Below are positions 1,452-50,799 of a stretch of 64,000 nucleotides of DNA, in pieces. The position numbers were made by a program, and so were the translations under genes. Source of the DNA: Candidatus Saccharimonadota bacterium (lineage in GTDB: Bacteria; Patescibacteriota; Saccharimonadia; Saccharimonadales; Saccharimonadaceae); contig JAFRBS010000027.1 of NCBI GenBank assembly GCA_017404725.1, forward strand, positions 349-64,348. The letters run 5' to 3'. The notes beneath the pieces were generated by a model. That model saw nothing but the letters and a program-made list of their open reading frames with translations, did no database searches and was not told where the DNA came from. Each line of letters starts with the position of its first letter. Positions within the stretch are counted from its first letter, which is position 1.

Positions 1452-3566
1452 TTACACGATTTTGTGGTTGATGTCGTCGATCAGGTCGCGCAAAGAGGCG
1501 GCGCGCTCGAACTCTAGGTTCGCGGCGGCGAGTTTCATCTCGCTTTCTAGCTGTTTTACTAGTTTCGGGATTTCCTCCGGCGGGACTTTCTTTAGGTCGA
1601 GCTGGTTTTTTTGCTCTTTTTCGGGGATAATCGCGCGCAGGCCGGCACTGACTTCTTTTTCAATTCCCTTCGGGGTAATACCGTGCTCCTCATTGTACTT
1701 CTTCTGAATTTCACGGCGGCGGCTGGTTTCTTCGATCGCGTGAGCCATACTCTCAGTAACATTATCGGCATACATAATCACTTTACCCTCGACATGGCGA
1801 GCGGCGCGACCGATCGTCTGGATCAAGGCTGACTCGGAGCGCAAAAATCCTTCCTTATCGGCATCCAAGATGGCGACCAGGCTTACTTCCGGCAAATCCA
1901 ATCCCTCGCGCAGCAGGTTAATCCCAACCAGTACATCATAAACCCCCGAGCGAAGGTCGCGCAAAATGTCGCCGCGCTCTAGAGTATCAATATCGGAGTG
2001 AACATAAGCAGTCTTGACACCACGCTCTTTTAGATGGTCTGTTAGATCCTCGGCCATACGTTTTGTCAAGGTCGTAATTAGGGTGCGTTGACCCTTCGCG
2101 ATGCGCCGGTCGATCTCTTCCATCAGGTCATCAATTTGGCCCTCGGAGCCTCTGACTTCGATTTCCGGGTCGAGCAGTCCGGTCGGGCGGATGACCTGCT
2201 GGACCGGTTCCGGAGAGTGTTCCAGCTCGTACTCGCCCGGCGTCGCCGAAACGTAAATCGCCTGATTGATGTGCTTTTCAAATTCGCCAAAAGTCAGGGG
2301 TCGGTTATCTAAAGCAGATGGCAGGCGGAAGCCATACTCGACTAGCGTTTCTTTCCTGGCGTGGTCGCCGTTGTACATCCCGCGGACTTGCGGCAGGGTC
2401 ATGTGCGACTCATCAACGAGAAGTAGAAAATCGTCCGGGAAAAAGTCGAGAAGCGTGGCTGGCGGCTGGCCTGGACGGCGGCCGTCGAGATGGCGAGAGT
2501 AATTTTCAATCCCCTTGACAAAACCGGTATTTTCCAGCATTTCCAGGTCATATTTTGTGCGCTGGGACAAGCGCTGGGCTTCGAGGAATTTTTGATTTTT
2601 CTCGAAAAATCGTAGGCGCTCGTCGAATTCGGCGCGAATGGTCACGAGCGCACGATCGAGCTGGTCCTTCGGGGTCGCGTAATGCGTGTTTGGGAAAATA
2701 TGAATTCTATCTGGCTTTTCGCGCACTTCGGCGGTTAAAGGGTCGATGATTTTGACTTCTTCTAGCGTGTCGAAGGCAAATTCGAAACGGTAGGCGTATT
2801 CGCCGGAGGCGGGAAAGAGGTCGACAGTGTCGCCCATCACGCGGAAGTTGCCGCGCTCGAAGGCGAGATCGTTTCGGTGATATTGCATCGCCACTAAATT
2901 GTAGATAAAATCTTGTTGAGAAATGGGAGCGGGGGCTTTTAGGTCTTCCGTCTCGCGCCAGGAGCTCGACGGGGGTGGGCACCCCACACCCACAGCCCGC
3001 GAGCTCTTGGGCTCGACTTGCTCGCTTTCGCTCGCAAAGTCAGACCTAAAAGCCCCCGCTCCCCATTTCTCACCGACTTTCCATAGCGGCAGAGACATTG
3101 CGGTGTAATGCTCGGGAGAGCCGATGCCGTAGATGCAGGAGACTGAGGCGACGATGATGACATCATCGCGAGTTAAAAGCGCCTCGGTTGCGCCGTGTCT
3201 TAAACGGTCGATTTCGTCGTTAATGGCGCTATCTTTTTCGATATAGGTATCGGACGAAGCGATATAAGCCTCGGGCTGGTAATAATCGAAATACGAAACG
3301 AAATAATGGACCTCGTTTTCGGGAAAAAACTCGCGAAATTCAGAATAAAGCTGGGCGGCGAGGGTTTTATTATGCGCCAGAACTAGGGTCGGGCGGTTAT
3401 AATGCCGAATTACGTTCGCCATAGTAAAAGTTTTACCGGAGCCGGTCACGCCGAGCAAAGTCTGCTCACGCAAATGATTATCTAGACCATCGCAGAGACG
3501 CTTAATCGCCTCCGGCTGGTCGCCGGTCGGAGCGTATTTCGAGTGGAGTTTGAACGATTTTGGCAT
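1452..3566 (-). CDS. uvrB: Excinuclease ABC subunit B, carrying an in-frame insertion of about 50 aa
   Basis: 704-aa ORF with GVTGSGKT Walker A, helicase motifs and a C-terminal UVR coiled coil ([14 protein letters not shown]). The extra segment [22 protein letters not shown]...DLKAPAP is encoded by the repeat at 2918..3071. Confidence 0.95.
2918..3071. repeat. 154-bp GC-rich palindromic element with 29/30-nt terminal inverted repeats, in-frame inside uvrB
   Basis: Left arm GAGAAATGGGAGCGGGGGCTTTTAGGTCT (2918-2946). The right arm 3042-3071 is its reverse complement apart from one extra G. The interior shares CGACTYGCTCGCYTTCG(G)CTCG with the mnmA copy. Confidence 0.85.
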
Positions 3567-3574
3567 AATATTAC

Positions 3575-3583
3575 ATTATATCA
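3575..3583 (-). promoter_or_regulatory. Extended -10 (TGATATAAT) 8 nt upstream of the uvrB ATG
   Basis: Reverse complement of ATTATATCA. No Shine-Dalgarno sequence lies between the box and the ATG. Confidence 0.4.
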
Positions 3584-3604
3584 CGTTTATGCTAAAAAGT
3601 CAAG

Positions 3605-8353: not shown

Positions 8354-10312
8354 TTAATTCTCGTCTGGCGCGACTAGGACGGCTTTAATGCGGCGAACGC
8401 CGGCGGAGGAAGACTCTTCTTTTTTGATCTTAAATTTCCCGCCGAGTTTTCCAGTACTTTCGACGTGCGGACCGCCGCAGACTTCGCGAGAAGCTGGATT
8501 TTCTGGGCCGCCGATTGTATAAACCGTGACTTTTTCAGGGTAGCGATCCCAGAAGGAACCGTGGGCCTTCAATTCGTTTTTAGCGTAATCTTTGTCGTAT
8601 TCGGCAAATTCTACTTTTAGATCCTGTTTTATCCACTCGTTGACCTGGTCCTCGACCTTCTGCTTTTCCTCGTCGGTCAGCTTATGGTCGACATTAAAAT
8701 CTAGACGCATGCGTTCAGGGGTGATATTGCTGCCTTTTTGGGCGATGTCCTTATCGACGTGCTTCTGGAGCGCGGCGAGAAGGAGGTGGGTCGCGGTATG
8801 ATATTTCGTCGACATATCGCTATGGTCTTCGAGACCGCCTTTAAACATGCCTTTACTGGCAGTTTTACTGCGGTTTCTCTGCTCCTCGAGCGCTTCGTCG
8901 AATTCTTTGCGCCAGTTTTCAGAGAGTTTAATCTCGTCGTGGTAGGCCTGCTCGACCGAGACCTCGACTGGAAAGCCATAGGTGTCCTGGAGCTTAAACA
9001 GATCGTAGCCTGTCAGGTCGGGGTCCTGACGCGGTGCATTCCGAAGGCAACCCCTTTGGGGCGCCTTCGGCTCCACCGCGCCACCCCTCCGGCTTAACTT
9101 TCGCATTTCCTTTAGGCCGCGGTTTAAGGTTTGGCGGAAGGCGCGCTCCTCTTTTTCAAGGATTTCCAGGGCGCCGGCGCGGTTCGTCAGGATGTTATCA
9201 GGGAGAGAGTTGTATTCCTCAGCGATAGGCGCGATGGTTTCTTTCAGGAAATCTTGGGCAATACCGAGATCTAGGGCCTTTAAGATTGCGCGGCGGATGA
9301 ACCGGCGTAGAGCGTAACCCTGAGCTTTGTTCGACGGACTCAAACCCTGCGCAGCCAAGAGGTAGGCGCCGCGCAAATGGTCCGCGATGATGCGCATCTC
9401 GTCGGTATTATTGTTGTAATCTTTACCGGATAATTCTTCTAGTTTGTCAATAATCGGGCGCATGAGGGAGATCTTAAAAACATCGAAGCTGCCGATTTTC
9501 GCCGCCGCCAGGCGCTCGAGACCGCCGCCAAAATCGACGTTTTTATGCTCAAGCTCAGAGAAAGTCCCGTCGTCGTTTCTTCGGTACTGCATGAAAACCT
9601 GGTTGCCGATCTCCATAAAGCGCGCGCCATCAGAGGCGGGATGGGACTGGCCGTATTTCTCGATGTCCTGCTTATCTTCGCCAAAATCGTAAAAAACCTC
9701 AGAATCTGGACCACAGGGGTCGCCTTTCGGGGTCGTTTCGATGCCGCCGCCACGACTCCACCAGTTTTCCTTGTCGTCGTAGAAGAAAATGCGTTCGCCG
9801 GGCTTAATTCCCCGTTTGTCCCCGTTCTCGGCGCTGCCGATTTCGGCGATTTTCGCCTCAATGCCGGCTTTTTTAAAAACTTTTTGCCAGATTTTTGCGG
9901 CTTCTTCGTCTTTCGGGATGCCGTATTTTTCGGAGCCGATGAAGCAAGTGACGTAAATCTTCGCAGGATCGAGGCCGATGACCTCTGTTAAGAATTCAAA
10001 ATAGTTGCTGATTTGTTCCTCTTTGAAATAATCGCCGAGCGACCAGTTTCCAAGCATCTCGAAGACCGTGGTATGGCGCGGATCGCCGACGTCGTCGATG
10101 TCCTGGAGCCTTAAACAGGGCTGGGAGTCGGTCAGACGGGTGCCCTCGGGATGTTTTTTGCCGAGAAGATAAGGGAGCAGAGGCTGCATCCCGGAGCCAG
10201 TAAACAGGGTCGTCGGGTCATTCTCGAGAACTAGGGGGGACGGCGGAATCTCCTTATGGCCCTTCGACTTTTGGAATTCTAGATATTTTTCTCTAATTTC
10301 GTTTGCGTTCAT
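8354..10312 (-). CDS. alaS: Alanine--tRNA ligase, short form (no C-Ala domain), with an in-frame insertion of about 23 aa
   Basis: Start moved to MNANEIREKYLEFQKSKGH (10312). Has the class II catalytic core, FKLQDTYGFP, and editing motifs HTATHLL and CGGPHV. The extra RRGGAVEPKAPQRGCLRNAPRQDP is encoded by 9020..9087. Confidence 0.9.
   Translation of the reverse strand: MNANEIREKYLEFQKSKGHKEIPPSPLVLENDPTTLFTGSGMQPLLPYLLGKKHPEGTRLTDSQPCLRLQDIDDVGDPRHTTVFEMLGNWSLGDYFKEEQISNYFEFLTEVIGLDPAKIYVTCFIGSEKYGIPKDEEAAKIWQKVFKKAGIEAKIAEIGSAENGDKRGIKPGERIFFYDDKENWWSRGGGIETTPKGDPCGPDSEVFYDFGEDKQDIEKYGQSHPASDGARFMEIGNQVFMQYRRNDDGTFSELEHKNVDFGGGLERLAAAKIGSFDVFKISLMRPIIDKLEELSGKDYNNNTDEMRIIADHLRGAYLLAAQGLSPSNKAQGYALRRFIRRAILKALDLGIAQDFLKETIAPIAEEYNSLPDNILTNRAGALEILEKEERAFRQTLNRGLKEMRKLSRRGGAVEPKAPQRGCLRNAPRQDPDLTGYDLFKLQDTYGFPVEVSVEQAYHDEIKLSENWRKEFDEALEEQRNRSKTASKGMFKGGLEDHSDMSTKYHTATHLLLAALQKHVDKDIAQKGSNITPERMRLDFNVDHKLTDEEKQKVEDQVNEWIKQDLKVEFAEYDKDYAKNELKAHGSFWDRYPEKVTVYTIGGPENPASREVCGGPHVESTGKLGGKFKIKKEESSSAGVRRIKAVLVAPDEN
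9020..9087. repeat. Short (about 68 bp) member of the GC-rich palindromic element family, in-frame in alaS
   Basis: Termini GGGGTCCTGACGCGGTG...CACCGCGCCACCCC match the termini of the ligA and desulfurase copies. The inner hairpin is CCGAAGGC-N13-GCCTTCGG. Confidence 0.7.
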
Positions 10313-10346: not shown

Positions 10347-10350
10347 GGCA

Positions 10351-10379
10351 TTGACTTTTTAGCATAAGTGTGCTATAAT
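10351..10379 (+). promoter_or_regulatory. Sigma70-type promoter TTGACT-17-TATAAT with TG extension
   Basis: TTGACT at 10351-10356 and TGCTATAAT ending at 10379. Lies upstream of 10462..11616. Confidence 0.6.
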
Positions 10380-10461
10380 GTAAGTAAGTCTGAGGTTTGG
10401 GTAACTAGTTGATTAACTGGGGCCCTGGCCCCATTGTACGTTTACAAAGGAGGTATTCGCT

Positions 10462-11616
10462 ATGGATACGAAAAAGTCAATCATCGTGGCTACCCTGGTG
10501 GTAGCATTAATCATGTCACTTATTATTCCGGTTACGACCGGCACCTCAGAGGCTCAGGCCGCTGAGACAGAAGTTAAGGCTGCCACCAATGGACTTTGGA
10601 CCTACTCGTATGACGAGTACGGGACGTTATTCACGTCGGCTACGCAGACGTCCAGCACGGTTGGAGTTAAGACTTCTGCGGGAAAGGAGATCAAGTTTGT
10701 GTCCTATCCAACGGCAGAAGGCATAAACTTTGACTTCACCGATGGCGAAGACTATTATTCCTACCGAACGAACACGTTGAATAATGTAGTTACGATTACC
10801 TCACGTATCAAAGGGGTTGTCCGCAACCAATCTGCGTACATCGAAGGTAAGGCTGCCGACGGCGTTGTCTATGTGGATAACTACGGCTGGATCACGGAGA
10901 GACATTACATCTCTCCAGAATCTTGGCAGATGGAAGAGTACAATTATAATGGACAAGTTACGAAGTCTGTTGTGAAAGTACTCGTACGCGACGGTTATAA
11001 CGCTTCGGCGTTCGTGTCAACGACAACCATGTCGGAAACACAGCCGACGACGCCGTCGAGTTCGCCGCAGCCGTTCTGGCCAACAGCAACTCCGTCAGCG
11101 ACACCATATAACCCGTACAACCCGTATCAGACGGCTCCGCCGTTTACGCCACCGACCATGCAGCCGACGCAGGCTCCAGTAGCAACACAACCGCCGGTAC
11201 AGACGCAGGTCCCGGTAGCAACAACGCCGCCGACACAGGAACCGCCGGTAGTGGTTGAGCCAACCTTAGCTCCAGCAACGCCTTCAAAATCTTTGTCGAA
11301 TTTAAAACGTTCGACAAAAATTGAGAAAAGGGCGTACAAGAGCCTGAAGAAGTTAAACAGGCTGGCAAAGAGCCACGGGTGGACCCTGCGTGAATATACG
11401 CGAAGGGCGTCAAATAAGCGGGTCGTTAAGACGAAGGTATATCTGGAAGGGTATGCCGGGTTCAAGGACGGCAAAGATTACTACGGCAAATTGTGGTTCA
11501 CCCACGTCTGCCAAAGATACGGCGGCAAGAAGTATGCCATCCGCTTTTGGCAGGACGGAAAATGGGTAAAAGGCATTAGGAAGAAAATTAAGTACCATCT
11601 TCTTAGTGTCATATAG
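10462..11616 (+). CDS. Secreted protein with a Pro/Thr-rich linker and a basic C-terminal domain
   Basis: AAAGGAGG RBS. N-terminal signal/TM segment (IIVATLVVALIMSLIIPV). A PT-rich tract of about 90 aa, then a Lys/Arg-rich C-terminus. No recognised family. Confidence 0.7.
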   Translation: MDTKKSIIVATLVVALIMSLIIPVTTGTSEAQAAETEVKAATNGLWTYSYDEYGTLFTSATQTSSTVGVKTSAGKEIKFVSYPTAEGINFDFTDGEDYYSYRTNTLNNVVTITSRIKGVVRNQSAYIEGKAADGVVYVDNYGWITERHYISPESWQMEEYNYNGQVTKSVVKVLVRDGYNASAFVSTTTMSETQPTTPSSSPQPFWPTATPSATPYNPYNPYQTAPPFTPPTMQPTQAPVATQPPVQTQVPVATTPPTQEPPVVVEPTLAPATPSKSLSNLKRSTKIEKRAYKSLKKLNRLAKSHGWTLREYTRRASNKRVVKTKVYLEGYAGFKDGKDYYGKLWFTHVCQRYGGKKYAIRFWQDGKWVKGIRKKIKYHLLSVI

Positions 11617-11663: not shown

Positions 11664-12833
11664 TTAAAATTTGATAATTCCGCCGCCGATGCAGGCGTCG
11701 CCCTGGTAGAAAACTGCAGATTGGCCGGCGGCGGGACGCTTGATTTCCTTTTTAAAAATCAGTTTGTTCCCTTCTAGGGTCGCTGGGATTAGCGGAGCGC
11801 GATGCCGAAGGCGCACGTCGATGCGAACGGGGCCTGTAGGCCTTCGGCCTTCCGCGTCCCAAGGGGCGGTCGCGTTGTATCGCCCATCCGACTCGCTCGC
11901 CTTCGGCTCGGAGCCGGCGGGACCCCTCAACGCGTCACCCGTTCGCTTGATGATATCTTCCAAATCGAGCTCGGTTGTCCAGAGGTCTTCCGCGTTCAAG
12001 TTGCGGGAGACGTAGACAATGTTTTTTGTAATATCTTTTTTGACAACGTAATACGGTAAGCCGGCGTCGGCACCTTTATTGGCAGAGCCAAGATCAAGGC
12101 CGTGGCGCTGGCCGATGGTGTAGAAAATCGCGCCTTCATGAGTACCTAGTTCGTGGCCGGTTTCAATTTCGATAATCGGGCCGGGATTAGGCTCAAAATA
12201 TTCTTTCAAAAAATCCTCCATGCCGACTTCACCGACGAAACAGACGCCCATCGACTCTTTTTTGTAAGCATTATCAAGGCCTTTTTCTTCGGCGAGTTTT
12301 TTGACGTCTTTTTTTAGCATATCGCCGATTGGGAAAAGAGTGTGGGCAAGGGCGTCTTCGCTGATGCGGTAGAGGAAGTAGGTCTGGTCTTTGTTCTCGT
12401 CGGCTGCTTTTCTCAGACACGGGTGGGGCGAGATCCTGGCGTAGTGGCCGGTTGCGATTAAGTCCGCACCCTGTTCGCGGGCGGTTTCGTAGAAAAGTTT
12501 GAATTTGATTTCCTGATTACACATGATGTCTGGGTTCGGGGTGCGGCCGGCTTTGAACTCGGAGAGCATGTAGTCGACGACTTTCTGTTTATACTCAGTT
12601 TCGAAATCAAAAACTCGAAAATCTATGCCGAGCTTTACGGCGACACGCTTCGCGTCGGCCAAATCTTCCGCCCAGGGGCATTTCATCCCGGGGAGATCCT
12701 TTGACCAATTCTTCATATAAACGCCAACAACGTTATAGCCCTGCTCTTTTAAAAGCACAGCGGAAAGCGAAGAGTCGACGCCACCAGACATGCCGAGAAA
12801 AACGGTCTTAGGCACAGCGGCGGGACTAGGCAT
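11664..12833 (-). CDS. mnmA: tRNA 2-thiouridine(34) synthase, with an in-frame insertion of about 38 aa
   Basis: PP-loop GMSGGVDSS, ATGHYAR, and C-terminal GQSAVFY. The extra TGDALRGPAGSEPKASESDGRYNATAPWDAEGRRPTGP is encoded by 11800..11945. Confidence 0.9.
   Translation of the reverse strand: MPSPAAVPKTVFLGMSGGVDSSLSAVLLKEQGYNVVGVYMKNWSKDLPGMKCPWAEDLADAKRVAVKLGIDFRVFDFETEYKQKVVDYMLSEFKAGRTPNPDIMCNQEIKFKLFYETAREQGADLIATGHYARISPHPCLRKAADENKDQTYFLYRISEDALAHTLFPIGDMLKKDVKKLAEEKGLDNAYKKESMGVCFVGEVGMEDFLKEYFEPNPGPIIEIETGHELGTHEGAIFYTIGQRHGLDLGSANKGADAGLPYYVVKKDITKNIVYVSRNLNAEDLWTTELDLEDIIKRTGDALRGPAGSEPKASESDGRYNATAPWDAEGRRPTGPVRIDVRLRHRAPLIPATLEGNKLIFKKEIKRPAAGQSAVFYQGDACIGGGIIKF
11800..11945. 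repeat. Composite GC-rich palindromic element in mnmA (core copy 11863..11940 plus an adjacent CCGAAGG/CCTTCGG hairpin module)
   Basis: The core GGGGCGGTCGCGTTGTATCGCCCATCC...GGACCCCTCAACGCGTCACCC aligns at about 80% with the ligA copy, in the same orientation and frame. The upstream module resembles the alaS inner hairpin. Confidence 0.8.
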
Positions 12834-14079
12834 TTTTTAGCCTTTCTAGCTCTTCTTTGACAGCATCAGCGATTAGGTTTGCGGCGGTTTTTACCTTCGC
12901 CTCATCGTTTAAGCGGCCGAAAGAGATGCGAAGGCTGCCGGCGATTTCTTTGTCGGTTAAACCTGCCGCCTTCAAAACATGAGATTTTTCGCCCTTTGAG
13001 GCGGCGCAGGCGGCGCCAGTACTAAGATAAACTTCTTTTTCTTCGAGTTTATAAACTAGGCGCTCAGCGTCTAGACCTGGAAAACTGACCGGGCAAAAAT
13101 TCGCGAGTTGGCGTTTTTTTGGCCCAAGGAAAACTGGCTCGATTTCGCCATTTAGTTCGTCGGTCAGGGAGTTTTTGAAAATTGTTTTTAAATTTTCGAA
13201 AGTCTTCGCGGCGGAGTTAAGATGGTCCTTAGTTTCTTTCATCGCCGCGGCGAAACCGATCGCGCCTGGTACGTTTTCGGTCCCGGAGCGCAGGTTTCTT
13301 TCCTGGCCACCGCCAGAAATTAGTGGCTTTAGTTTTACGCCGTGAGCAACGTAAAGTGCGCCGACACCTTTCGGGCCATAGATTTTTGCGGAACTTAAAG
13401 TCAGAAGGTCGGTCTTCATGCGGGCGACGTTAATATTCAGAAGGCCCAGCGCGGCGGAAGCGTCGGAATGAAGATAGAGCGGGCGAGGGTTTTTATTTTT
13501 GAGGCGGGCTTGGCGCTCGCTCTTGATAATTTCAGCGATTTCGGCGAGCGGTTGGATCGTGCCGAGCTCGTTGTTTGCCGCGGCGACGGAAATTAGAACC
13601 GTGTCTTTTGTGATTTTGCTTTTTAGATTGTCTAGATCGATCAGACCGGAGCCGGGCTTGACTTTGATCTTTCCGGCGCCATAATTTTCGGCGGTCCTGA
13701 GGACTGAGGCGTGCTCAGTCTCTAAGACGAGTACGAGGGGTGGCGCGTTGAGGGGCCCCGCCGCCCCCCGAGCCGACAGGCGAGCGGGGGTGGATGGGCG
13801 ATACAACGCGTCAGGACCCCGAGTGCTAGCGTTTAAGACCGAGAACGCCAAGTTCGTGGCCTCGGTTGCGCCGGAAGTCATGACAAGATCGTTGGCCTTA
13901 GCGCCGATAGTATGGGCAATTTCAGACTTCGCGTTTTCGTAAGCTTCCCTGACCCGCTTGGCCGGAAGATAAGGCGCCGAAGGGTTGAAAAAGTCATCCG
14001 CAAAAAATGGTTCCATAGCGGCTTTAGCCTTCTTAGACAGTGGCGTCGCCGAAGCGTGGTCAAGATAAATCATGGACAT
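12826..14079 (-). CDS. Class V aminotransferase / cysteine desulfurase (NifS/IscS-like), with an in-frame insertion of about 29 aa
   Basis: The ORF-track N-terminal extension is rejected. Real start is MSMIYLDHASATPL (14079) or, more likely, MIYLDHAS (14073). Overlaps the mnmA start. The extra STRGPDALYRPSTPARLSARGAAGPLNAPP is encoded by 13737..13820. Confidence 0.85.
   Translation of the reverse strand: MSMIYLDHASATPLSKKAKAAMEPFFADDFFNPSAPYLPAKRVREAYENAKSEIAHTIGAKANDLVMTSGATEATNLAFSVLNASTRGPDALYRPSTPARLSARGAAGPLNAPPLVLVLETEHASVLRTAENYGAGKIKVKPGSGLIDLDNLKSKITKDTVLISVAAANNELGTIQPLAEIAEIIKSERQARLKNKNPRPLYLHSDASAALGLLNINVARMKTDLLTLSSAKIYGPKGVGALYVAHGVKLKPLISGGGQERNLRSGTENVPGAIGFAAAMKETKDHLNSAAKTFENLKTIFKNSLTDELNGEIEPVFLGPKKRQLANFCPVSFPGLDAERLVYKLEEKEVYLSTGAACAASKGEKSHVLKAAGLTDKEIAGSLRISFGRLNDEAKVKTAANLIADAVKEELERLKNA
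13737..13820. repeat. 84-bp GC-rich palindromic element, inverted relative to the ligA/mnmA copies, in-frame in the desulfurase gene
   Basis: Its reverse complement GGGGTCCTGACGCGTTGTATCGCCCATCCACCCCCGCTCGCCTGTCGGCTCGGGGGGCGGCGGGGCCCCTCAACGCGCCACCCC is about 90% identical to ligA 17137..17215. Confidence 0.9.
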
Positions 14080-15627: not shown

Positions 15628-18713
<3,086 letters not shown>

Positions 18714-21103: not shown

Positions 21104-21183
21104 ATTATATATATTATAGCACATTATAGCACAAACGGGATTTAGGGGTGCAAAAAACGAGGCGTTTGCCCCGGTTTTAGCGT

Positions 21184-21230
21184 GGTGCGGGCGAAGAGAC
21201 TCAAACTCTCGACCTCTTCCTTGGCAAGGG
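21184..21230. repeat. attL: displaced 3' portion of tRNA-Gly (47-bp exact direct repeat of 52130..52176)
   Basis: TGGTGCGGGCGAAGAGACTCAAACTCTCGACCTCTTCCTTGGCAAGG is identical at both sites and the flanks diverge immediately. It is also visible as the shared peptide CQGRGREFESLRPH in two artefactual ORFs. Confidence 0.9.
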
Positions 21231-27977: not shown

Positions 27978-28599
27978 CCACAATCACCCCGCTTATCGTG
28001 CGCGATGGAATAATGCCGGCGCTGGCAAGTTTAATGGGGCGTTCTTTTACTCAAAAGAAATCGTCAAAAATATCATCCCGAACGTTCGGACGGACCGGAA
28101 TTGGGTCACAATTAATATCCCAGGTTTCGCTCCGGATCACTCCATCGTTTTTATCCATAATAACAAACATCCATGGAACTACAACTGGCTGGAAAACTAT
28201 GAAGATTTGATTCTCGTTTGTGGGGTACCAGAAACGTGCGAGAAGGTGGCTCATCTCGGCAAGACGATATATTTGCCGCTGTCAGTGGATGTAGAGGATG
28301 TCGCAAAATATCGATGCGAGAAAACTAAAGAGATTGCATTCGCTGGACGCCTTGATAAGGCACGCGGGTTATCTGGCGTTGATATGATCGGCGGATTGCC
28401 GCGGACTAAACTTTTGCCTGAGATGGCGAAGTATCGTAAGATTTACGCCGTCGGCAGAACCGCTATCGAGGCAAAGATTTTAAACTGCGAGGTTTTGCCT
28501 TACGACCAACGATTCCCTGATCCGAAACTCTGGCGGATCGTGGATAATTCAGAGGCGGCTAAAATACTCCAGAGGGAATTGGATAGAATAGATGGCTAG
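27967..28599 (+). CDS. Phage hypothetical protein
   Basis: Start moved to MIIDHNHPAYRARW (in frame with ORF 27868). Sits between terS and terL. I recognise no domain. Confidence 0.5.
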   Translation: MIIDHNHPAYRARWNNAGAGKFNGAFFYSKEIVKNIIPNVRTDRNWVTINIPGFAPDHSIVFIHNNKHPWNYNWLENYEDLILVCGVPETCEKVAHLGKTIYLPLSVDVEDVAKYRCEKTKEIAFAGRLDKARGLSGVDMIGGLPRTKLLPEMAKYRKIYAVGRTAIEAKILNCEVLPYDQRFPDPKLWRIVDNSEAAKILQRELDRIDG

Positions 28600-29755
28600 A
28601 ACAACGGCGCTGAATAAGATTGAAGCGGCAGTGTGCGAGCCGACCTTCTACAAGGTGATTCAGGGTGGTATGAGTGCTGGCAAGACTTTTGCCACCTTGA
28701 CGATTCTCGTCGGCTATTGCGAATCCTACCCTGATTCCCTAGTCACGGTGCTGGGCTTATCTTATCCGCACCTGTCAACCGGCGCCATAAGGGACTTCCA
28801 GCGCGTGATGAAAGAAACAAACCGCTGGGATGATTCCAGATGGTCTTCAACAACCCACATCTATCAGTTCCCAAACGGTTCTACACTTGAGTTCGTTTCA
28901 GTCGACAAAATGTCGGCTCGTGGTCCACGCCGTGATGTTCTATTCGTGAATGAGGCCAATGGCATCAGCTTCGAAGTATTCGACCAACTCGCAAGCCGTT
29001 CTCGCGATTTCGTTATTATCGACTACAACCCATCGGCTAAGTTTTGGGCTCATGAGGAGCTTGTGGAGCGGCAGAAAGACCAGACAACGTTCCTAGTGCT
29101 AACCTACAACGACAACGAGGCTCTGGGAGCGCGTGAGAGGGCTAATATCGAATCTCGCCGGCCAAAAAAAGGCGAAGAACCGTCAAACTGGTGGACAGTG
29201 TATGGTCTAGGCCAAATTGGAACGCTGGAAGGCAACGTCTATTCTGGCTGGGAAGAATCCACTGCCGAGGAAATCTCGGCAACTGGGAAACTGGTTCGCT
29301 ATGGACTGGACTTCGGGTTCTCGAACGACGAAACAGCCCTAGTGGCGATATATGAGATGGAAGACGGCAAACTTGGAGTCGTGGAAAAGTTGTATCGAAA
29401 AGGACTTTTGGGCTCAGAGTACCCGCTTATATTCCAAGAGATTGGCATTGACCAAAATGTGCTAATCGTGGCGGACTCGGCTCGGCCAGAAATTATCGCT
29501 GAAATTAAGGAAGCGGGTTTTAGAATCATCGGAGCTGATAAGAACCCAGGGTCAGTACTACGAGGGATCGATCGAGTTAGCCAGCGCCAGATTGTTTATT
29601 CAGGAAAAAATCTGAAGCGTGAGTACCTAAGCTACCCTTGGCGGACCAAACGTTCCGGGGAGGTGCTAGACGAGCCTCAGGACGGAAACGACCACCTTTT
29701 GGATGCTCTGCGATACGCTGTCGATGATTTGTCCAAAAAGCGGTTTGACTTTTAA
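28592..29755 (+). CDS. terL: Terminase large subunit (PBSX-like)
   Basis: Walker A GGMSAGKT, Walker B LFVNEA, and a C-terminal nuclease region with DHLLDALRY. Confidence 0.85.
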   Translation: MARTTALNKIEAAVCEPTFYKVIQGGMSAGKTFATLTILVGYCESYPDSLVTVLGLSYPHLSTGAIRDFQRVMKETNRWDDSRWSSTTHIYQFPNGSTLEFVSVDKMSARGPRRDVLFVNEANGISFEVFDQLASRSRDFVIIDYNPSAKFWAHEELVERQKDQTTFLVLTYNDNEALGARERANIESRRPKKGEEPSNWWTVYGLGQIGTLEGNVYSGWEESTAEEISATGKLVRYGLDFGFSNDETALVAIYEMEDGKLGVVEKLYRKGLLGSEYPLIFQEIGIDQNVLIVADSARPEIIAEIKEAGFRIIGADKNPGSVLRGIDRVSQRQIVYSGKNLKREYLSYPWRTKRSGEVLDEPQDGNDHLLDALRYAVDDLSKKRFDF

Positions 29756-34057: not shown

Positions 34058-34501
34058 ATGGCGAAGCCTGAGATTACCCTTGCAGAGGCGAAGAAACATC
34101 TTCTGCCGAAGAAAGGTAGTCTTCAGGCTTCCGACCTGATTGACACAGAAAGGTTGGCGGAGCTTCGAAAAAAGGCAAAAGCAGCCGAGAAGAAACGGAA
34201 AGCTGCTAAAAAAGCACGTTTTGATACGATCGACGCGTATTCTGCGGAAATAATCGCTCGTTTTGGGTACCGAGCGTACCTAGAATGGAATGATGGCGAA
34301 ATTGACGAGGCGCAGATGGCTAAATGGATCATGGCCGAACGAGCAAGAGATAAGGTCAACATCTTAAATCTTGAAGCAATAATCATATCGTTGGTTTCAT
34401 CCTGTGTACGTTATCAAAAAGGATCGCCAAAGCCGAAAGGACCGGCTCAGGCACAGAAAATCTATAAAGAAGAAGTGAAAATATCGAAAGGTGAGATATA
34501 A
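34058..34501 (+). CDS. Tail assembly chaperone, by position
   Basis: 147 aa, directly upstream of the tape measure gene. Confidence 0.45.
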   Translation: MAKPEITLAEAKKHLLPKKGSLQASDLIDTERLAELRKKAKAAEKKRKAAKKARFDTIDAYSAEIIARFGYRAYLEWNDGEIDEAQMAKWIMAERARDKVNILNLEAIIISLVSSCVRYQKGSPKPKGPAQAQKIYKEEVKISKGEI

Positions 34502-37275
34502 TGGCAACAGAAGTCGGACAAGCAGTCGTAAAATTATCGTTTGATACTAAATCACTCGATAAGAGTCAAGCGGAGGCAGAGCGCAAAATCACCAATGCCG
34601 GGACATCATCTGGCAGCGCTTGGGGCAATGCATGGACGGTTGCGGCTGGCAACCTTATCGCCAAGGGTGTGGAAAAGGTTGCTTCAGCGATCCAGAATAA
34701 TCTCGGGAACGCGATTAAGCGCGTCGATGTCATGAACAACTTTCCAAAGGTGATGCAAAACCTCGGCATTTCAGCTGACGCTTCTTCGCGCGTGATTAAG
34801 GATTTATCTGAAAAGCTGATGGGCTTACCAACGACGCTCGATAGTGCCACGCTGGCGGTTCAGCGGTTCACGTCTAAGAATGGGGACGTGGAAAAGTCTG
34901 AGCGTATATTCCTAGCGGTTAACAACGCCATCTTGGCTGGCGGGGCGAGCGCAGAAATCCAAGCCTCGGCGATGGAGCAACTATCACAGGCCTACTCTAA
35001 AGGTAAGCCTGACATGATGGAATGGCGAACAATTCAGACGGCAATGCCGGCTCAGCTCAAACAGGTGGCAACGCAGATGCTCGGAAATGTGGACGCACTT
35101 CAGAGCTACCTAAACAAGGCCCGGACGTTCGCTAAAGAGAATCCGCTCAATTCAGCGGCAAAAGAGCTAGTAGAACAGCTTGAGGCGGTGGCAGATGGCA
35201 CTGGTGATATGACTACGGCACTTGGAACAGCCTTGAGATCTGGGGTAATATCAATGGATGAGTTCACCGATACGATGATCGAAATGAACAAAACCGGGAC
35301 TAAAGGGTTTGCGAGCTTTGAGAAACAGGCAAGAAGCGCTACTGGCGGTATCGAGACGTCTATGACTAATCTGAATACGGCAATTTCGAGGGCGATTGCA
35401 AATGTGATTAACTCGATTGGGTCTGAGCGGATAAACAGGGCGATCCAAGGAATCATCGGGTTCATAAATCAGTTAGGGAATACAATTTCTGGAGTAGTCA
35501 ACTTTATTATAGACAACGGAGGAGTGATAGTCAGCGTATTAGCCGGAATTGGAACAGCTATGGCTACGGCATTTGTCGTAGATAAGGTCAAAGCGTTCAC
35601 AACTGCGATCCAATCGCTGACCTCTGCGTTCGTCAGCCCTACCGGACTAATAGCGGCAGCTGCTGGTCTAGTAGTCGGTCTAATTTCGGTAGTAAATGCG
35701 ACCGATGATGTCGAGTCTAGAATGTCGGAAACTAGCAAATTCCTAAGAGATATGGGCGACTCTTTGGCGGAAAATAAACGCTCGTGGGAAGAACTACAGG
35801 CCGCACAAGAAAAACAACTAAGCGCGGGTATGTCGGAAATGGCATACTATCAGTCGCTGGCATCCGAGTTAGACCGTATCGTAGACGAAAACGGCCGTGT
35901 TCAGTCTGGATACGAACAGCGTGCCGAGTTTATTGCGAGCAGGCTAAAGGACGCTCTGGGCGTAGAAATCAGCCTGCAAGACGGTGTCATAAAAGGATAC
36001 CAGGGCATAAAAGATAGCATAAATCAAGTCATCGCCCAGAAGAAAGCTAAAATTATCCTTGACGCCCAAGAGGCTGGATACACCGAAGCAATCAAACAGC
36101 AGCAGGTAGCCTTAGAACAAATGGGCAGCACACAGGAAGAAATTACGCGAAAACACGCCGAATGGATGAACGCCGAATATCAGTTAGAACAGCAGCGTTC
36201 TACTATGTCTCAGCAACAAATTATAGATGCCCAAAACAGAATATTTGCTCTGAAAAACGAGGAGCAGGCGCTTACGGATACTTTAAATGCACAGAAAACA
36301 CAATATGGCCAGTATACCTTCCAAATCGGCGTATATGAAGACAATATGGCTAAGTTCCACGCCGGCGAGTACGATGCAATGAACACTGCGACGTGGGGGT
36401 ATATTCAAAAGTTCTCCGAAGCGGAACAAGCGGAAAAAGCAATGCTGGAAGACCAGATTTCAACCACGCGTGGAGCGATGACTACGCTCGAAGAGCTTTA
36501 TAAACAGACAGGGGACGAGACTTACCGCATCCAGTATGAGTCGAACCAAAAGAAATATGATAAGCTAGTAGAGTCGCATAAGAAATATGAAAAAGCGACG
36601 CAAAATAATCAGGCGGCTACCCTGGCAATCTGGAACGAAGGGCTTGGTAATATTTTGTCTACTATTAGTGGCAAGCAAGTAGAGTTTAGAAAGGAAGGAG
36701 ACGGCTCTATCAGCCAGTATGTCAAAGGGGTTAAATCGCAAAGTTGGGAATCTGCGGCGGCCTTTAATGGCGCCATCGACCAAGCTTTGGGCCAAATCCA
36801 GCTTCGTGAAGGAGAGTTTTACTCGGTTGGGAAAAATCTCATGGCAGGAGTCATAAAAGGGGTTCGGGAAGGCAAAAACGGACTTGTTGACGGTATGGTA
36901 GATGCCATAATCAAAACGGCAGACGCTGCTCGCGCTGTCGCGCAGATTAAATCGCCTTCGCGTGTATTCGCCGAGATTGGTTACTATATCGATAAGGGGC
37001 TCGAACTTGGTATCCGTAATAATGCTGGCGGAGTTGCGGCGGCTGCCGAGAGTATGGTCCATAAGGCCGCTTCGGCGAGCGGCGAAGTTGGCGGGATTGA
37101 TATCGCAGCGAATATCCCAGATCACTCTAGCGTACTAGAGCAAGTCTATCGCGTGGAAAGCGAAGACAAAGCCGCGTCAGGTGATGCTGGACAACCGCTA
37201 GTCGTCAACCTTGAGTTGGACGGCCAACAAATACAAAGAGTAATTTTGCAAGATGAAAGGAGAGCAACGGTATGA
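34501..37275 (+). CDS. Tape measure protein
   Basis: 924 aa with the N-terminal tape-measure motif AMEQLSQAYSKGKPDMMEWRTIQTAMPAQL, a central hydrophobic segment and long coiled coils. Confidence 0.85.
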   Translation: MATEVGQAVVKLSFDTKSLDKSQAEAERKITNAGTSSGSAWGNAWTVAAGNLIAKGVEKVASAIQNNLGNAIKRVDVMNNFPKVMQNLGISADASSRVIKDLSEKLMGLPTTLDSATLAVQRFTSKNGDVEKSERIFLAVNNAILAGGASAEIQASAMEQLSQAYSKGKPDMMEWRTIQTAMPAQLKQVATQMLGNVDALQSYLNKARTFAKENPLNSAAKELVEQLEAVADGTGDMTTALGTALRSGVISMDEFTDTMIEMNKTGTKGFASFEKQARSATGGIETSMTNLNTAISRAIANVINSIGSERINRAIQGIIGFINQLGNTISGVVNFIIDNGGVIVSVLAGIGTAMATAFVVDKVKAFTTAIQSLTSAFVSPTGLIAAAAGLVVGLISVVNATDDVESRMSETSKFLRDMGDSLAENKRSWEELQAAQEKQLSAGMSEMAYYQSLASELDRIVDENGRVQSGYEQRAEFIASRLKDALGVEISLQDGVIKGYQGIKDSINQVIAQKKAKIILDAQEAGYTEAIKQQQVALEQMGSTQEEITRKHAEWMNAEYQLEQQRSTMSQQQIIDAQNRIFALKNEEQALTDTLNAQKTQYGQYTFQIGVYEDNMAKFHAGEYDAMNTATWGYIQKFSEAEQAEKAMLEDQISTTRGAMTTLEELYKQTGDETYRIQYESNQKKYDKLVESHKKYEKATQNNQAATLAIWNEGLGNILSTISGKQVEFRKEGDGSISQYVKGVKSQSWESAAAFNGAIDQALGQIQLREGEFYSVGKNLMAGVIKGVREGKNGLVDGMVDAIIKTADAARAVAQIKSPSRVFAEIGYYIDKGLELGIRNNAGGVAAAAESMVHKAASASGEVGGIDIAANIPDHSSVLEQVYRVESEDKAASGDAGQPLVVNLELDGQQIQRVILQDERRATV

Positions 37276-38183
37276 GCGTAAAAGATGTAGTTAGTGAATG
37301 CTGGATCCTGACTTTGTTTGTCAGGGAAGATGGGCAGAGGCTCTTGCTTGGGTCTGGGGATTATGCGTTCCGCTCAGATCAGCAACACTTCTCAGCGAAC
37401 TTAATTGTGAACGATACGGTCGACGTTCAGGGTGGCGATGGAACTTATATCATCGGTCAAGTTCGCCGGGCACAGCCACAAGTTTTCGAAGGCTATGTCG
37501 GTGATGGTAGCTATTCTAAGCAACAAGTTGAAGAGAAACGCCGAACTTTTATCGCCTTTTTCCAAAAGAACCACGTTTTTGAAGCGATCTATATATTCCC
37601 TGACGGTACGGCAATTCGGCGACAAAGAGGCTATATCACATCCGCACCTGAAGTTAAAGAGCTCTATCAGGTAGCGCCCGAGTACAGCGTTGCGCTGAAC
37701 TTTGAGGACGTCAACTACTATTCCTACGCTGAGGATGAGGATGGGAATGAGATTTATTCCCAATCCGCTATTATCCCGCTTTATGGTTCAGTTGGTGGTG
37801 GTCTTATTTGGGATAATACTGGTGCTGTCTTTGATAGCACTGGTGCCACTTTTGATGGTGGCCCGAATGGCGTTTCGACGCTTAATATCGCTACTATCAG
37901 TACTATTTATCCAGTTTGGACGGTCAGAGGCAGATCTGAATACCCGCAACTCTACAACGCTACTACTAACACTACAATTAAATATGACGGAATTGTGACT
38001 TCCACACAAACCTTGGTGGTCGATATGTCGCGTCGCACAGCAACGCTTAATGGCACGAACGTATTATCTCGCATTTCAGGTGAGTGGGTTTCGTTCGCGC
38101 CGGGTTATAACCGGATCCGCTACGACGCCAATAACGACTACGCGCCACACAGCTCCATTGAATGGCAGGAGGTGGTTGCTTAA
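37272..38183 (+). CDS. Distal tail protein (Dit-like)
   Basis: Position immediately after the tape measure gene; 303 aa. Confidence 0.5.
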   Translation: MSVKDVVSECWILTLFVREDGQRLLLGSGDYAFRSDQQHFSANLIVNDTVDVQGGDGTYIIGQVRRAQPQVFEGYVGDGSYSKQQVEEKRRTFIAFFQKNHVFEAIYIFPDGTAIRRQRGYITSAPEVKELYQVAPEYSVALNFEDVNYYSYAEDEDGNEIYSQSAIIPLYGSVGGGLIWDNTGAVFDSTGATFDGGPNGVSTLNIATISTIYPVWTVRGRSEYPQLYNATTNTTIKYDGIVTSTQTLVVDMSRRTATLNGTNVLSRISGEWVSFAPGYNRIRYDANNDYAPHSSIEWQEVVA

Positions 38184-40460: not shown

Positions 40461-40832
40461 ATGTCTCGAGAAATCTTATTATTATACCAAGACTGCCCGA
40501 TGTGCGGTGTTCATGCTGCTTGGGGAGCAAAACAGATGGAAATCGCTAAAAAAAATAAGCTTGTATTTAGAGAAGTTTCATTTATTACGCCTGAAGCTAT
40601 CAAAGCTCGTTATATGCAGAACGCAGTCAAAAAAGGAATCCGGAGTTACCCGTTCTTCACGGATGGTGTTAAGTTTAGTCGTTCGCTTGCTGATTTTATC
40701 GAAGAAAAACCTTCGGCTCCGCAGAAACCTGCAAAAAGTGTGAAAAAATCCACAAAAAAGGCTGCACAAAGCAAGAAAAGCACTCGCAAGAATAAAACCG
40801 AGGTAGCGGATGGGAATAAGGCAAAGAATTAG
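40461..40832 (+). CDS. Thioredoxin/glutaredoxin-like CxxC protein with a Lys-rich tail
   Basis: Start MSREILLLYQDCPMCG. The C-terminal tail is KPAKSVKKSTKKAAQSKKSTRKNK. Confidence 0.5.
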   Translation: MSREILLLYQDCPMCGVHAAWGAKQMEIAKKNKLVFREVSFITPEAIKARYMQNAVKKGIRSYPFFTDGVKFSRSLADFIEEKPSAPQKPAKSVKKSTKKAAQSKKSTRKNKTEVADGNKAKN

Positions 40833-42888
40833 CGACGCTATCTCTGGAAATCGGCGCAGAACCCGAGCCACACAAGAAACGAACAACGTTATTTCCGTTA
40901 ATGCGTTATGCTCGGCGTACGAGAATCTTTTTGCGCAAGTCCGCCCGCTTATCGACGAGATGAAAACGGTAATCCCTTACGGGGTCGGCCGCAACGGCGG
41001 TTCACTTGGAGTTGCTAGGACCCCTGAACTGGCAGCACTACAGGATCCAAACGAAGATATGGGATGGGGCGAGTTCGCAGATGCGATGTTTGCAACCTGG
41101 CTAACCGAAACAGAGCTAAATATCCACGTCCACAAGACCCCGCGTGGCAAAGTGTATGGTTATTCTGTTTTGCCTCCGGGATGTCGAACCACTAGAGCTG
41201 GTGGCGAGGTTATATTTGAGTTTTATGACGAAAAAGGCGGGATGGTCACGCTTACTCGAGACGAGGTGGCCACGCTCCGGTTTAGTCGTTCGCCGCGCAA
41301 TATTGACAAAGGAGTGTCGCCGGCATCATCTGTATTCACGTGGTCGCAAATTGACGATTTGATGGCGCAGTATCAAAAAGCATTCCTTGAGAACGGGGCG
41401 GTTCCAGCTTCGCTTACCATCATCAGAGCTTCATCAAAAGACAAGTTTGAACAAGCACGTAAAGAGATGGAAAAGCAGTACCGGGGGGCTGAGAACCGCA
41501 ACAAGACGCTTTACATTTGGCGCCAATTTGACAACGATGATGGGACGGAAAAAGATCAAGTAGAAATCAAGACAATTCAAGGTAATAACTCGACACTGGC
41601 GATTAAAGAACTTATCTCGGTGGTTAACGACCGCTTAAATAAGGCTGTCGGGGTCTCTAATTTCATCCTCGGCGACGATTCTAGTGCCAAATACGACAAC
41701 GCTGAGCTATCCGACTTACAATTTACGAAAAGACGCGTCTATCCGGCTCTGGTGAGCTTTTGGGGCCAATTTCAGCACGAACTAGACCGGATTGTCGGTG
41801 GGTTGGGATATGCCATCCAGTTTGACCTCGATGTTCCAGAATTAACGGACCGGCTTAAGACTAAGGCGGAGACTTCCCAAAAAAATGCGGATACCTTGAT
41901 TAATCTGATTAAGGCGGGCGCTAGGCCATCGGCGGCAGTAGAAGCGCTTGGATTATCTCAAGCCTGGCTTCCGGTAGCGAATGGTATTTTCAAAAGTGTG
42001 CTCCCTACTGATACAACTATTAACCCTACTCCAATTTTAAACAAAAATAGTAGCCTTCTCACACCAAATCAATCTCAACACTCTGAGACAAAAACTGAAG
42101 ATAAAAAAGAGATAGTAGGGAGCACAACAAAGGATGCGGCGATTGGATATCCGGTATTCAACGAAACTGAGATTAGGGAGAAATCAATTTATGACTCGCT
42201 CATGAAGATTGCTGAGGCGTATGCGAAAGAGTTCCAGGTCTCGGTTCAGGATGCGATTGACGCCATAATGGAAGTATTAGTACCGGAAGCGGATGACGGG
42301 GCGAACGCTGGGGCAGAGCGGATCGGTAAAATTACCGACGGCGAGGCAAGTGACTTTATTCAAGCGCAACTAGACAAGAACGGGTTTCATGTTTCGGAAG
42401 ATTTTCAGAAAGATTTAAATGATCGGGTTGCTGATTTGGTTTCTAATTATGACAAAGCTACAGCAGAAAGATTGCAAAACATCTTGTCATCTTCGCAAGA
42501 GGAAGGACTGTCTGCGAGCGAAATTAAGAAAAGGGTTCGGGAAGTGCTGCCGAAGGAAATGGCCGAAAGAGCCGCTCTGATCGCAAGAAATGAAACGGTG
42601 CACGCGTTCCGAGCTGGGCGCTTGTCTAATGACGAATACCTAGCGAATCGATTCGGACTGAAGCTAGGAAAGATTTGGCGTTGCAAGCATGATAAAGAGA
42701 CGTGCGAAGTTTGCGAAGCGATGGATGGGCGCATGGTCGAGTTGAAACAGGCGTTTCCGGATGAAATCGAGGACAAAGATGGAAATGTATTGAAGTGGGA
42801 TCACACCGTGTACAATCACTCAGGTGAAACTCCAGATGCGCACGTCAATTGCCGATGTTATTTTGATGAGGTAATACTAGATGATTAA
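40810..42888 (+). CDS. Portal protein fused to a MuF/SPP1-gp7-like head morphogenesis domain
   Basis: The N-terminal 400 aa or so follow a portal pattern. The C-terminus carries ALIARNETVHAFRAGR...W.C..D..TCEVCEAMDG...HVNCRCY, as in MuF domains. Confidence 0.7.
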   Translation: MGIRQRISDAISGNRRRTRATQETNNVISVNALCSAYENLFAQVRPLIDEMKTVIPYGVGRNGGSLGVARTPELAALQDPNEDMGWGEFADAMFATWLTETELNIHVHKTPRGKVYGYSVLPPGCRTTRAGGEVIFEFYDEKGGMVTLTRDEVATLRFSRSPRNIDKGVSPASSVFTWSQIDDLMAQYQKAFLENGAVPASLTIIRASSKDKFEQARKEMEKQYRGAENRNKTLYIWRQFDNDDGTEKDQVEIKTIQGNNSTLAIKELISVVNDRLNKAVGVSNFILGDDSSAKYDNAELSDLQFTKRRVYPALVSFWGQFQHELDRIVGGLGYAIQFDLDVPELTDRLKTKAETSQKNADTLINLIKAGARPSAAVEALGLSQAWLPVANGIFKSVLPTDTTINPTPILNKNSSLLTPNQSQHSETKTEDKKEIVGSTTKDAAIGYPVFNETEIREKSIYDSLMKIAEAYAKEFQVSVQDAIDAIMEVLVPEADDGANAGAERIGKITDGEASDFIQAQLDKNGFHVSEDFQKDLNDRVADLVSNYDKATAERLQNILSSSQEEGLSASEIKKRVREVLPKEMAERAALIARNETVHAFRAGRLSNDEYLANRFGLKLGKIWRCKHDKETCEVCEAMDGRMVELKQAFPDEIEDKDGNVLKWDHTVYNHSGETPDAHVNCRCYFDEVILDD

Positions 42889-50553: not shown

Positions 50554-50580
50554 GCTTCGGCCTGCCTCTAATTTTACCTA

Positions 50581-50609
50581 TTGACTTTTTTGGAAAAGTG
50601 CGATACAAT
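50581..50609 (+). promoter_or_regulatory. Sigma70-type promoter TTGACT-17-TACAAT
   Basis: TTGACT at 50581-50586 and TACAAT at 50604-50609. Followed by a leader of about 190 nt before ATG 50800. Confidence 0.55.
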
Positions 50610-50799
50610 AGAGGTAGTTTAGATAGTCACTTAAACACTCCGCCGGAGAGATTTGGTGGGGTGTTTTAATCCCCACCGTAAACCGGATAATTTAGGTAAT
50701 ATGAGCCAGCTTTTCCGCGCTCTGGAAATGTTGACTCACTAACCGCCAAGAACCTGAAGAGCGGAGGTAATTTTGACGGCTAAATAAAGGAGGTAATTT

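Follow-up and report, generated by a model that had tools for sequence, protein, structure and literature searches.

A GC-rich palindrome in the reading frame of the uvrB gene of a ruminant-gut Saccharibacterium and its relation to a family of in-frame palindromic elements

The DNA analysed here is a stretch of 64 kb (hereafter, the window) from a member of Candidatus Saccharibacteria, in which the gene uvrB contains a GC-rich palindrome of 154 bp that leaves the reading frame open. The question raised by this locus is where such a palindrome comes from and how it persists inside a coding sequence. The best-known cases of selfish palindromes lying in frame within genes are those of Rickettsia, and we know of no account of how elements of this kind move. 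The first-pass annotation of the window had proposed that the uvrB element is a longer relative, similar to a MITE (miniature inverted-repeat transposable element), of a family of ~85-bp palindromes found in neighbouring genes. We lean, with little more than even confidence, towards a modified form of this proposal, namely that the element is the copy resident in uvrB, by now strongly altered, of a selfish family of GC-rich palindromes from which it descends, and that it is functionally equivalent to the Rickettsia palindromic elements (RPEs).

The host gene, at 1452..3566 on the minus strand, is an intact open reading frame (ORF) of 704 aa, and UvrB Pfam domains are recorded for its identical product. 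The closest homologues are metagenome-derived UvrB proteins of Candidatus Saccharibacteria (TM7), the closest genome record is a metagenome-assembled genome from goat jejunum (L017), and the organism belongs to the Candidatus Saccharibacteria of the ruminant gut. The element itself, delimited by inverted-repeat and fold analysis at 2918..3071, has its sense on the minus strand and occupies codons E166-S216, in frame and stop-free; besides the frame in use, the corresponding mirror frame of the opposite strand is the only one without stops across it. On the + strand, positions 2918-2946 (GAGAAATGGGAGCGGGGGCTTTTAGGTCT) are the reverse complement of 3042-3071 but for one extra G, and a repeat finder delimits within them a perfect inverted repeat of 22 nt (2925-2946 / 3042-3063) with arms 95 nt apart. 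This is the strongest local inverted repeat of the window, where the arm pattern is observed twice against 0.01 occurrences expected from 100 shuffles. The fold of the transcript strand was calculated at −109.4 kcal/mol, compared to −63.3 ± 4.2 for shuffled sequences (z = −11.0), and that of the DNA at −59.6 kcal/mol (z = −10.8), while the GC content of the element is ~0.64 versus ~0.50 in its surroundings. The terminal inverted repeats of 29 and 30 nt, lying in frame in uvrB, and the strong mRNA hairpin described by the first-pass annotation were thus both borne out, the latter by fold-energy prediction.

On the mRNA, the 5' arm (3042..3071, minus strand, 30 nt) codes for 10 residues and the 3' arm (2918..2946, minus strand, 29 nt) for (E)DLKAPAPIS. 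The outer part of the 3' arm, CCATTTCTC, overlaps the native codons ATT TCT CA(A), which are also present in orthologues devoid of the insert (the locus L004 has ...CAGCAGATTTCTCAA and no insert), and the outermost 9 nt of the 5' arm, GAGAAATGG, mirror these native I-S-Q codons opposite. The outer stem consists of a 3' half that is native I-S-Q coding sequence and of a 5' half (E-K-W) that is its mirror image. Between the arms lies a GC-rich core of 95 nt (2947..3041, minus strand), which holds a weak block resembling the mnmA element (3014-3030) and a small inner hairpin (2958..3010, minus strand; arms 2958-2979 / 2989-3010), whose tip is the quasi-palindrome GGG[G/T]GTGGG-CAC-CCCACACCC.

The same 154 bp, one single-nucleotide polymorphism (SNP) apart, were found in five independent assemblies, obtained from different samples with different assemblers, and the gene was always intact and in frame. 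The SNP, at position 2974, is the only one in the 2115 nt of uvrB among the five assemblies, with G in the window and T in L102-L105; the commoner allele, T, turns the tip of the inner hairpin into GGGTGTGGG-CAC-CCCACACCC, a perfect 9-bp palindrome. A second population variant, the amino-acid change R204H in the protein P0122, is also inside the element, so that both polymorphisms seen in the population of the window fall within it. In the extra flank of L102 two other GC-rich inverted repeats were noticed, whose interiors read as ordinary coding sequence. Rfam gave no match over the uvrB element, the sole hit in a scan of 2700-3300 being a sub-threshold SECIS_2 outside of it, and a search of the element for sites resembling terminators or promoters gave none.

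At the protein level, the element makes the distance between the motifs SCIYGIG and QY.RN 48 residues longer than the canonical one, and it ends 15 residues ahead of QYHRND, in good agreement with the ~50 residues that had been reported ahead of QY.RND in an otherwise canonical UvrB. Comparison with solved structures aligned residues 1-161 and 209-286 to residues 3-161 and 161-239 of Bacillus subtilis UvrB, which places the insert at a single point, between B. subtilis residues 161 and 162, in a strand-strand turn where domain 2, through which UvrB interacts with UvrA (Pfam UvrB_inter), begins. We propose that this position is a permissive surface loop, at the tip of the beta-hairpin that comes first in this domain. 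The insert peptide is of low complexity and, in an AF2/AlphaFold model built from 30 orthologues and poor as a whole (mean pLDDT 58.6), it was the coil of lowest confidence (pLDDT 23-38); the ~48 residues are probably disordered. In one public annotation this UvrB (P0121, NCBI MBQ3306380.1) is only 548 aa long and starts at M157, just ahead of the insert; this looks like an effect of gene calling rather than a real truncation, the full ORF of 704 aa being open in the window. Just upstream of uvrB, at 3571-3603 (−), there is a copy of a very strong promoter-like motif, ATTGACTTTTT..N..TATAAT, which recurs ahead of genes at 10350-10386, 50580-50616 and 52048-52084.

The family to which the element had been likened is represented in the window by four GC-rich palindromes of ~85-100 bp, all in frame in housekeeping genes; three of them share a reading frame and one is inverted. 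They lie in alaS (9012..9095, minus strand; 65.4 bits against the covariance model described below), mnmA (11862..11949, minus strand; 64.4 bits), ligA (17128..17224, minus strand; 91.6 bits) and, opposite to the orientation of the gene and still in frame, in a cysteine desulfurase (iscS-like) gene (13729..13828, plus strand; 89.4 bits). Their common architecture comprises a stem 1 (CGGGT/ACCCG), a 5' bulge of 2 nt, a stem 2 of 7 bp and a 3' bulge of 5 nt, NCAGG. In 1.38 Mb of DNA, the signature [CG]GGGTG[AG]...[CG]AGGACCC[CG] retrieved only the alaS, iscS-like and ligA copies together with the inserts present in the UvrB loop of three other loci, L003, L098 and L100. The latter have the family termini, both basal stems, both bulges and the reading frame in common with the family and, judged on these features, they are clear members of it. 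The alignment of seven family sequences has 12 basal pairs, 6 of which show compensatory changes, and the covariance model derived from it gave 68.8 bits for the L003 insert and detected two more copies, in obg of L002 and in gatB of L098. Rfam had no match over the family copies; a sub-threshold match to the ALIL pseudoknot in ligA, at 15859-15952 (−), scored 28.5 bits against a gathering threshold of 50 (E = 2e-4) and is probably due to chance.

The copy in gatB of L098 (15263-15386 of that locus) is 97% identical, from ACGGGT to ACCCGT, to the copy in uvrB of the same locus (10501-10624), from which it is ~5 kb apart, and encodes the same peptide; gatB of L003 and L100 is empty at the corresponding point. 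The flanks of these twins are inverted repeats specific of each site, for which ordinary target-site duplication gives no explanation: GAATG and CATTC on the two sides in uvrB, and GAAGTAGCT and AGCTACTTC in gatB, where an 8-nt palindrome, GTAGCTAC, borders the copy on both sides. The twins, together with the obg and the other copies, indicate a family that is dispersed within genomes and counts the UvrB loop among its sites.

To place the window element in this context, the UvrB loop was compared in 81 UvrB loci. The distance from SCIYGIG to QY.RN was exactly canonical in ~65 diverse bacteria and in some Saccharibacteria, and it was extended in one Saccharibacteria subclade, to which the inserts are restricted, by 9 to 48 residues, with further loci at +55 and +58 and up to ~70 additional residues in the protein alignment. 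The insert peptides are mutually unrelated except for a G-x-W start, whose W codon belongs in turn to the mirrored outer stem. The comparison of orthologues that had been suggested for this gene thus showed that the insert peptide is not conserved across distant homologues, which have a loop of invariant length; beyond what had been anticipated, it revealed a loop that is hypervariable throughout the clade and some close relatives free of any insert. In fact, insert-free and insert-bearing alleles stand side by side in pairs of very similar proteins (aa identity of 95.7% for L004/L003, 97.9% for L099/L098 and 98.9% for L101/L100), and in each of these pairs the whole loop segment is replaced, with no clean insertion or excision. 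Simple insertion or excision was rejected as the origin of these pairs, since the insert-free loops are unrelated in sequence and exactly canonical in length.

Strong hairpins were found in 6 of the 13 insert types with DNA: those of the window (−109 kcal/mol, z −11), L003 (−83 kcal/mol, z −7.6), L098 (−60 kcal/mol, z −5.7), L100 (−71 kcal/mol, z −6.4), L107 (−108 kcal/mol, z −6.3) and L108 (−85 kcal/mol, z −7.0). The other seven (L002, L106, L039, L023, L018, L020 type and L019) are not strong hairpins, and the hairpin shape is thus common at the UvrB loop and not obligatory; the hypothesis that every uvrB insert is a hairpin was discarded on account of L039, L023, L018, L020 type, L019 and L106. 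The short form of L019 (+9 aa) is a mini-palindrome of the same outer stem. Five sequenced uvrB hairpins, as well as the family copies in six other genes, are all in frame. The insert of L002 aligns to the right half of the window element over 39 of 46 nt, is devoid of the left arm and of the core and forms only a weak hairpin; it is a deletion derivative of a window-like element, in which the loss of one arm left the uvrB gene intact. Since L002 retains the right arm, the hairpin is older than the split between the two lineages, which diverge by 0.48 at 4-fold sites; the fact that the arms of the window are perfect over 22 bp despite this age points to concerted change of both arms.

What links the window element to the family is its position. 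The inserts of the window, L002 and L003 (90-93% aa identity) are found at the same codon and have the same outer stem, which differs by one compensated change, GAGAAATGG/CCATTTCTC in the window versus GGGAAATGG/CCATTTCCC in L003, and the L003 insert (90% aa identity) is clearly a copy of the family. By sequence, the window element does not appear recognisable as a member. The block that it has in common with the mnmA element (CGACTTGCTCGCTTTCG at 3014-3030 and CGACTCGCTCGCCTTCG at 11889-11905), on which the proposed relationship had partly been based, does exist, with 19 of 22 positions matching and one gap, but it is near to chance, being equalled or beaten by 9 of 300 shuffles; moreover, the two genes do not read it in the same frame, and the match of the peptide ASESE..EPK, which the two elements were believed to share, combines two distinct frames. 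Not all the hairpins of this site can be ascribed to the family, in that the covariance model failed to recognise L107 and L108. The arm motif GGGGCTTT...AAGC[CT]CCC was found elsewhere only in the uvrB hairpin of L108 (79% aa identity).

Several results weigh against the descent of the window element from a mobile family. A nhmmer profile built from the four family copies gave no hit on it, a regular-expression search did not find the family termini signature in it, and the covariance model (R1) gave a weak score of 9.3 bits at 2921-3067 (+), with E-values, to be taken as rough, of 4.5 when the whole window is counted and 0.016 when only the locus is; in its alignment the arms correspond to stems 1 and 2, and both bulges are missing. 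No second copy of arms or core was found in the window, in ~8.5 kb of extra flank or in ~1.4 Mb of related loci, and no multi-copy match to either across 185,579 representative (GTDB) genomes; the single-copy status is provisional, as only ~72 kb of this genome were covered by the census. No transposase was found among the 20 window ORFs scanned, in which phage genes and an integrase were seen. A direct target-site duplication is absent, the + strand flanks being ...CTTGTT before the element and ACCGAC... after it, and the flanks of the L098 copies are inverted and not direct repeats, which is not predicted by known cut-and-paste transposition. Finally, the insert-free alleles of three sublineages (L004, L099 and L101), of canonical length and unrelated loop sequence, are not explained by simple insertion followed by excision.

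The window-type arms are GGGGCTTTTAGG / CCTAAAAGCCCC, or, in short, GGGGCTTT...AAGCCCCC. In the representative genomes, which do not include that of the window, the arm pattern GGRGCGGGRGYTTYTAGGYC gave 13 single hits, at the level of chance if compared to a rough expectation of a few tens in 596 Gb; the sole hit in Saccharibacteria was the uvrB orthologue of the L002 type. Blastn-short with the element and the core against the window and all loci returned orthologues only. A word-index search with the 52-aa peptide gave no candidate and was uninformative, UvrB itself being also missed, while phmmer of the insert peptide against 1.84 billion representatives retrieved nothing, a weak negative because a cluster representative may not carry the insert. 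The repeat census advised by the first-pass annotation, therefore, confirmed dispersal for the ~85-bp family and gave no second copy of the window arms or core in the DNA searched. Similarly, a relationship to this family stood as far as family copies occupy the same loop in L003, L098 and L100, and failed for the window element itself on the profile, the signature and any convincing covariance score.

Our preferred reading, descent from the palindromic selfish family, builds on the anatomy of the element, its in-frame state and clade restriction, the lack of peptide conservation, the family copies at the same site elsewhere and the dispersed L098 twin, all observed directly. The family would colonise housekeeping genes in the ruminant-gut Saccharibacteria clade, and its copies would last only where they fall in a surface loop that tolerates them and leave the frame open, free of stops. 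The window copy, which would itself have been mobile, would be transcribed and translated with uvrB as a loop of ~48 residues, and its hairpin character would be a property of the DNA. Template switching is known to create, maintain, extend and homogenise hairpin arms, including those in coding DNA (PMC8794818, PMC8604942, PMC7202029). During replication, template switching within a strand at the quasi-palindrome could keep the arms complementary, and even perfect them, and the outward growth of the stem into native flanking sequence could be due to the same process; the perfect arms of 22 bp, the mirrored native flank, the SNP at 2974 and the inverted flanks in L098 are consistent with such events. 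The interior would turn over by deletions at the hairpin and possibly by nested insertion, and insert-bearing and insert-free alleles would be swapped between related strains by recombination. Since the insert is dispensable in close relatives, its peptide is unconserved and the loss of an arm is harmless, and also in view of the lack of Rfam, terminator or promoter matches, we take the element as selfish or neutral DNA, presumably tolerated in the surface loop and translated. Introns, inteins and translational bypass were set aside, because no copy breaks the frame or contains a stop, and an element of this size is much too short to code for a product of its own.

The palindrome could, on the other hand, be of local origin and never have been mobile: a short loop extension would have become a quasi-palindrome by inverted duplication of the native I-S-Q codons and would then have grown and been re-perfected by template switching, the resemblance to the family being secondary, for instance as a result of gene conversion. 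To this possibility we assign a minor, still appreciable probability. It would account for an outer stem made of native codons and their mirror image, of which insert-free L004 already has ATTTCTCAA, for the mini-palindrome of L019, for a SNP that toggles the perfect tip palindrome, for the failure of the covariance model and of the profile to recognise the element and for the lack of a second copy of arms or core in the DNA searched, and its mechanism is documented (PMC8794818, PMC8604942, PMC7202029). However, the orthologous inserts of L003, L098 and L100 bear the full termini and architecture of a family known from six further genes, and for one of these inserts an almost identical twin lies at a distance of 5 kb; insertion codon and outer stem are common to the window and L003, and the GC-rich composition is foreign to uvrB. 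An artefact of assembly or amplification, such as a fold-back chimera, has next to no probability: palindromes can arise in this way in metagenome assemblies, but this is refuted here by the recovery of the same 154 bp, with one SNP, in five independent assemblies and in frame in an intact gene.

Two further explanations assign a function to the insert. It might be a cis-acting structure under selection, that is, an mRNA element slowing or gating translation between UvrB domains 1a and 2, a target of a double-strand RNase, or a DNA cruciform bound by a protein. Such a role could explain why six inserts unrelated in sequence are all strong hairpins at the same site (z from −5.7 to −11), the compensatory changes in the basal stems and the arm motif that the window and the distant L108 have in common at this site only; yet seven other insert types are not hairpins, close relatives are without any insert, L002 has an intact gene minus one arm, the same hairpin family occurs in unrelated genes in either orientation, and no Rfam family, terminator-like or promoter-like site was found. 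A regulatory RNA role is disfavoured, and we judge a selected structure of any of these kinds improbable. Slightly less probable again, and likewise disfavoured, is an adaptive, fast-evolving protein loop, for example one tuning or shielding the UvrA-binding domain 2, in which the DNA palindrome would be incidental. The location in the UvrB_inter region, the hypervariability combined with a conserved G-x-W start and the fact that both population polymorphisms are amino-acid changes inside the insert would fit this explanation, but no peptide conservation extends past the W, whose codon is within the mirrored outer stem, the sequence is of low complexity and modelled, within a poor model, as the coil of lowest pLDDT, and insert-free alleles persist in each sublineage.

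Among known systems, RPEs are the closest in kind. They are hairpin palindromes of ~100-150 bp, in frame in unrelated housekeeping genes of a bacterium with a reduced genome, translated as extra peptides at permissive sites and with no known transposase (PMC10969869), and the ~85-bp family, including the uvrB copies of L003, L098 and L100, behaves exactly in this way. The differences concern the phylum, here Saccharibacteria of the candidate phyla radiation, and the composition, here GC-rich in a genome of ~50% GC; the likeness considered here is one of features. The window copy departs further, in that several dispersed copies are expected of RPE-like elements, whereas this one is single-copy as far as searched, and its stem, of 22 + 7 bp, is far more perfect than those of the rest of its family. 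Classical MITEs, such as QMITE1/2 of Coxiella, have similar terminal inverted repeats around a core and transcripts with folds of about −110 kcal/mol; they vary widely in size, include truncated copies and are at times fused in frame with genes (PMC10969869, PMC5896051). By contrast, the elements described here have no direct target-site duplications and show site-specific inverted flanks, they are neither AT-rich nor mainly intergenic, and no parent insertion sequence was identified. A dispersed, MITE- or RPE-like family does occupy the UvrB site, but the window element lacks marks of classical MITEs, being GC-rich and without direct target-site duplication, with no transposase seen.

Long perfect inverted repeats in genes that are still translated and functional are also known from the mitochondria of Nematomorpha (PMC6649704). 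In those palindromes both arms encode conserved protein regions under amino-acid selection, while the arms of the uvrB palindrome encode an additional loop that is not conserved and overlap native codons with no more than their 9 outermost nt. Hairpins shaped by template switching show the same perfect homogenisation of the arms, stem extension into the flank, one-step double changes that look compensatory and symmetric indels (PMC8794818, PMC8604942, PMC7202029). Template switching is, however, a mutational mechanism and not an element family, and it leaves unexplained the termini shared with copies in other genes. REP/BIME sequences, which are associated with RAYT transposases, and the mitochondrial GC clusters of yeast are also GC-rich palindromes of small size, able to multiply within the genome; REPs are 20-40 nt long, extragenic and have a GTAG head, and the yeast clusters can occupy coding regions and live in AT-rich organelle genomes. 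No RAYT was seen in the window. In the full-text literature, no palindromic, in-frame or miniature inverted-repeat elements were found reported for Saccharibacteria/Patescibacteria, nor anything relevant on MITEs of the candidate phyla radiation.

What is new here is the occurrence of RPE-like in-frame palindromes in a new phylum, with the inverted flanks and the turnover of hairpins at one site as the features that stand out. If the Saccharibacteria, which are ultra-small and dependent on hosts, have an analogous family, essential genes would have been colonised in this manner in a second, unrelated lineage with reduced genomes. A bolder and more tentative idea, on balance doubtful, is that these are an undescribed class of GC-rich coding palindromes of Saccharibacteria, which would reach essential genes along a hairpin-templated route and leave flank duplications that are inverted and not direct; the loop of UvrB domain 2 would then be a long-lived landing and growth site, where unrelated hairpins replace one another and are re-perfected by template switching, beside insert-free alleles that recombination carries from strain to strain. 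The L098 uvrB/gatB twins with their exact borders, the presence/absence alleles in close relatives and the L002 deletion derivative are valuable material in this respect, and the natural series of hairpins at one fixed site offers a test of whether template switching creates and maintains coding hairpins. On the practical side, the inserts inflate and diversify conserved marker proteins and can mislead gene callers, as in the case of P0121.

The window also carries an integrated prophage of the siphovirus type, of ~31 kb (21183-52206). Perfect direct repeats of 47 nt (21183-21229 and 52130-52176) bound it and overlap a tRNA-Gly(GCC) gene (52130-52206) in its 3' part. Its genes include those for the terminase (28592-29755), the tape measure protein (34501-37275), Dit (37272-38183), the portal plus Mu-F (40810-42888), a CHAP lysin (45780-46775), the tail fibre (47149-48756) and a tyrosine integrase (51159-52025). 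Five AAGCACCCGTAGGAAATTATCAT-like copies, with matches of 37 nt, are found in the prophage at 26083, 29841, 39999, 40400 and 45721, mostly ahead of genes, and may be phage promoter or regulatory sites. Finally, direct repeats with a spacing of 78 nt were observed at 49090-49636, inside an LRR_5/DUF285 gene (48756-49970) of the prophage region.

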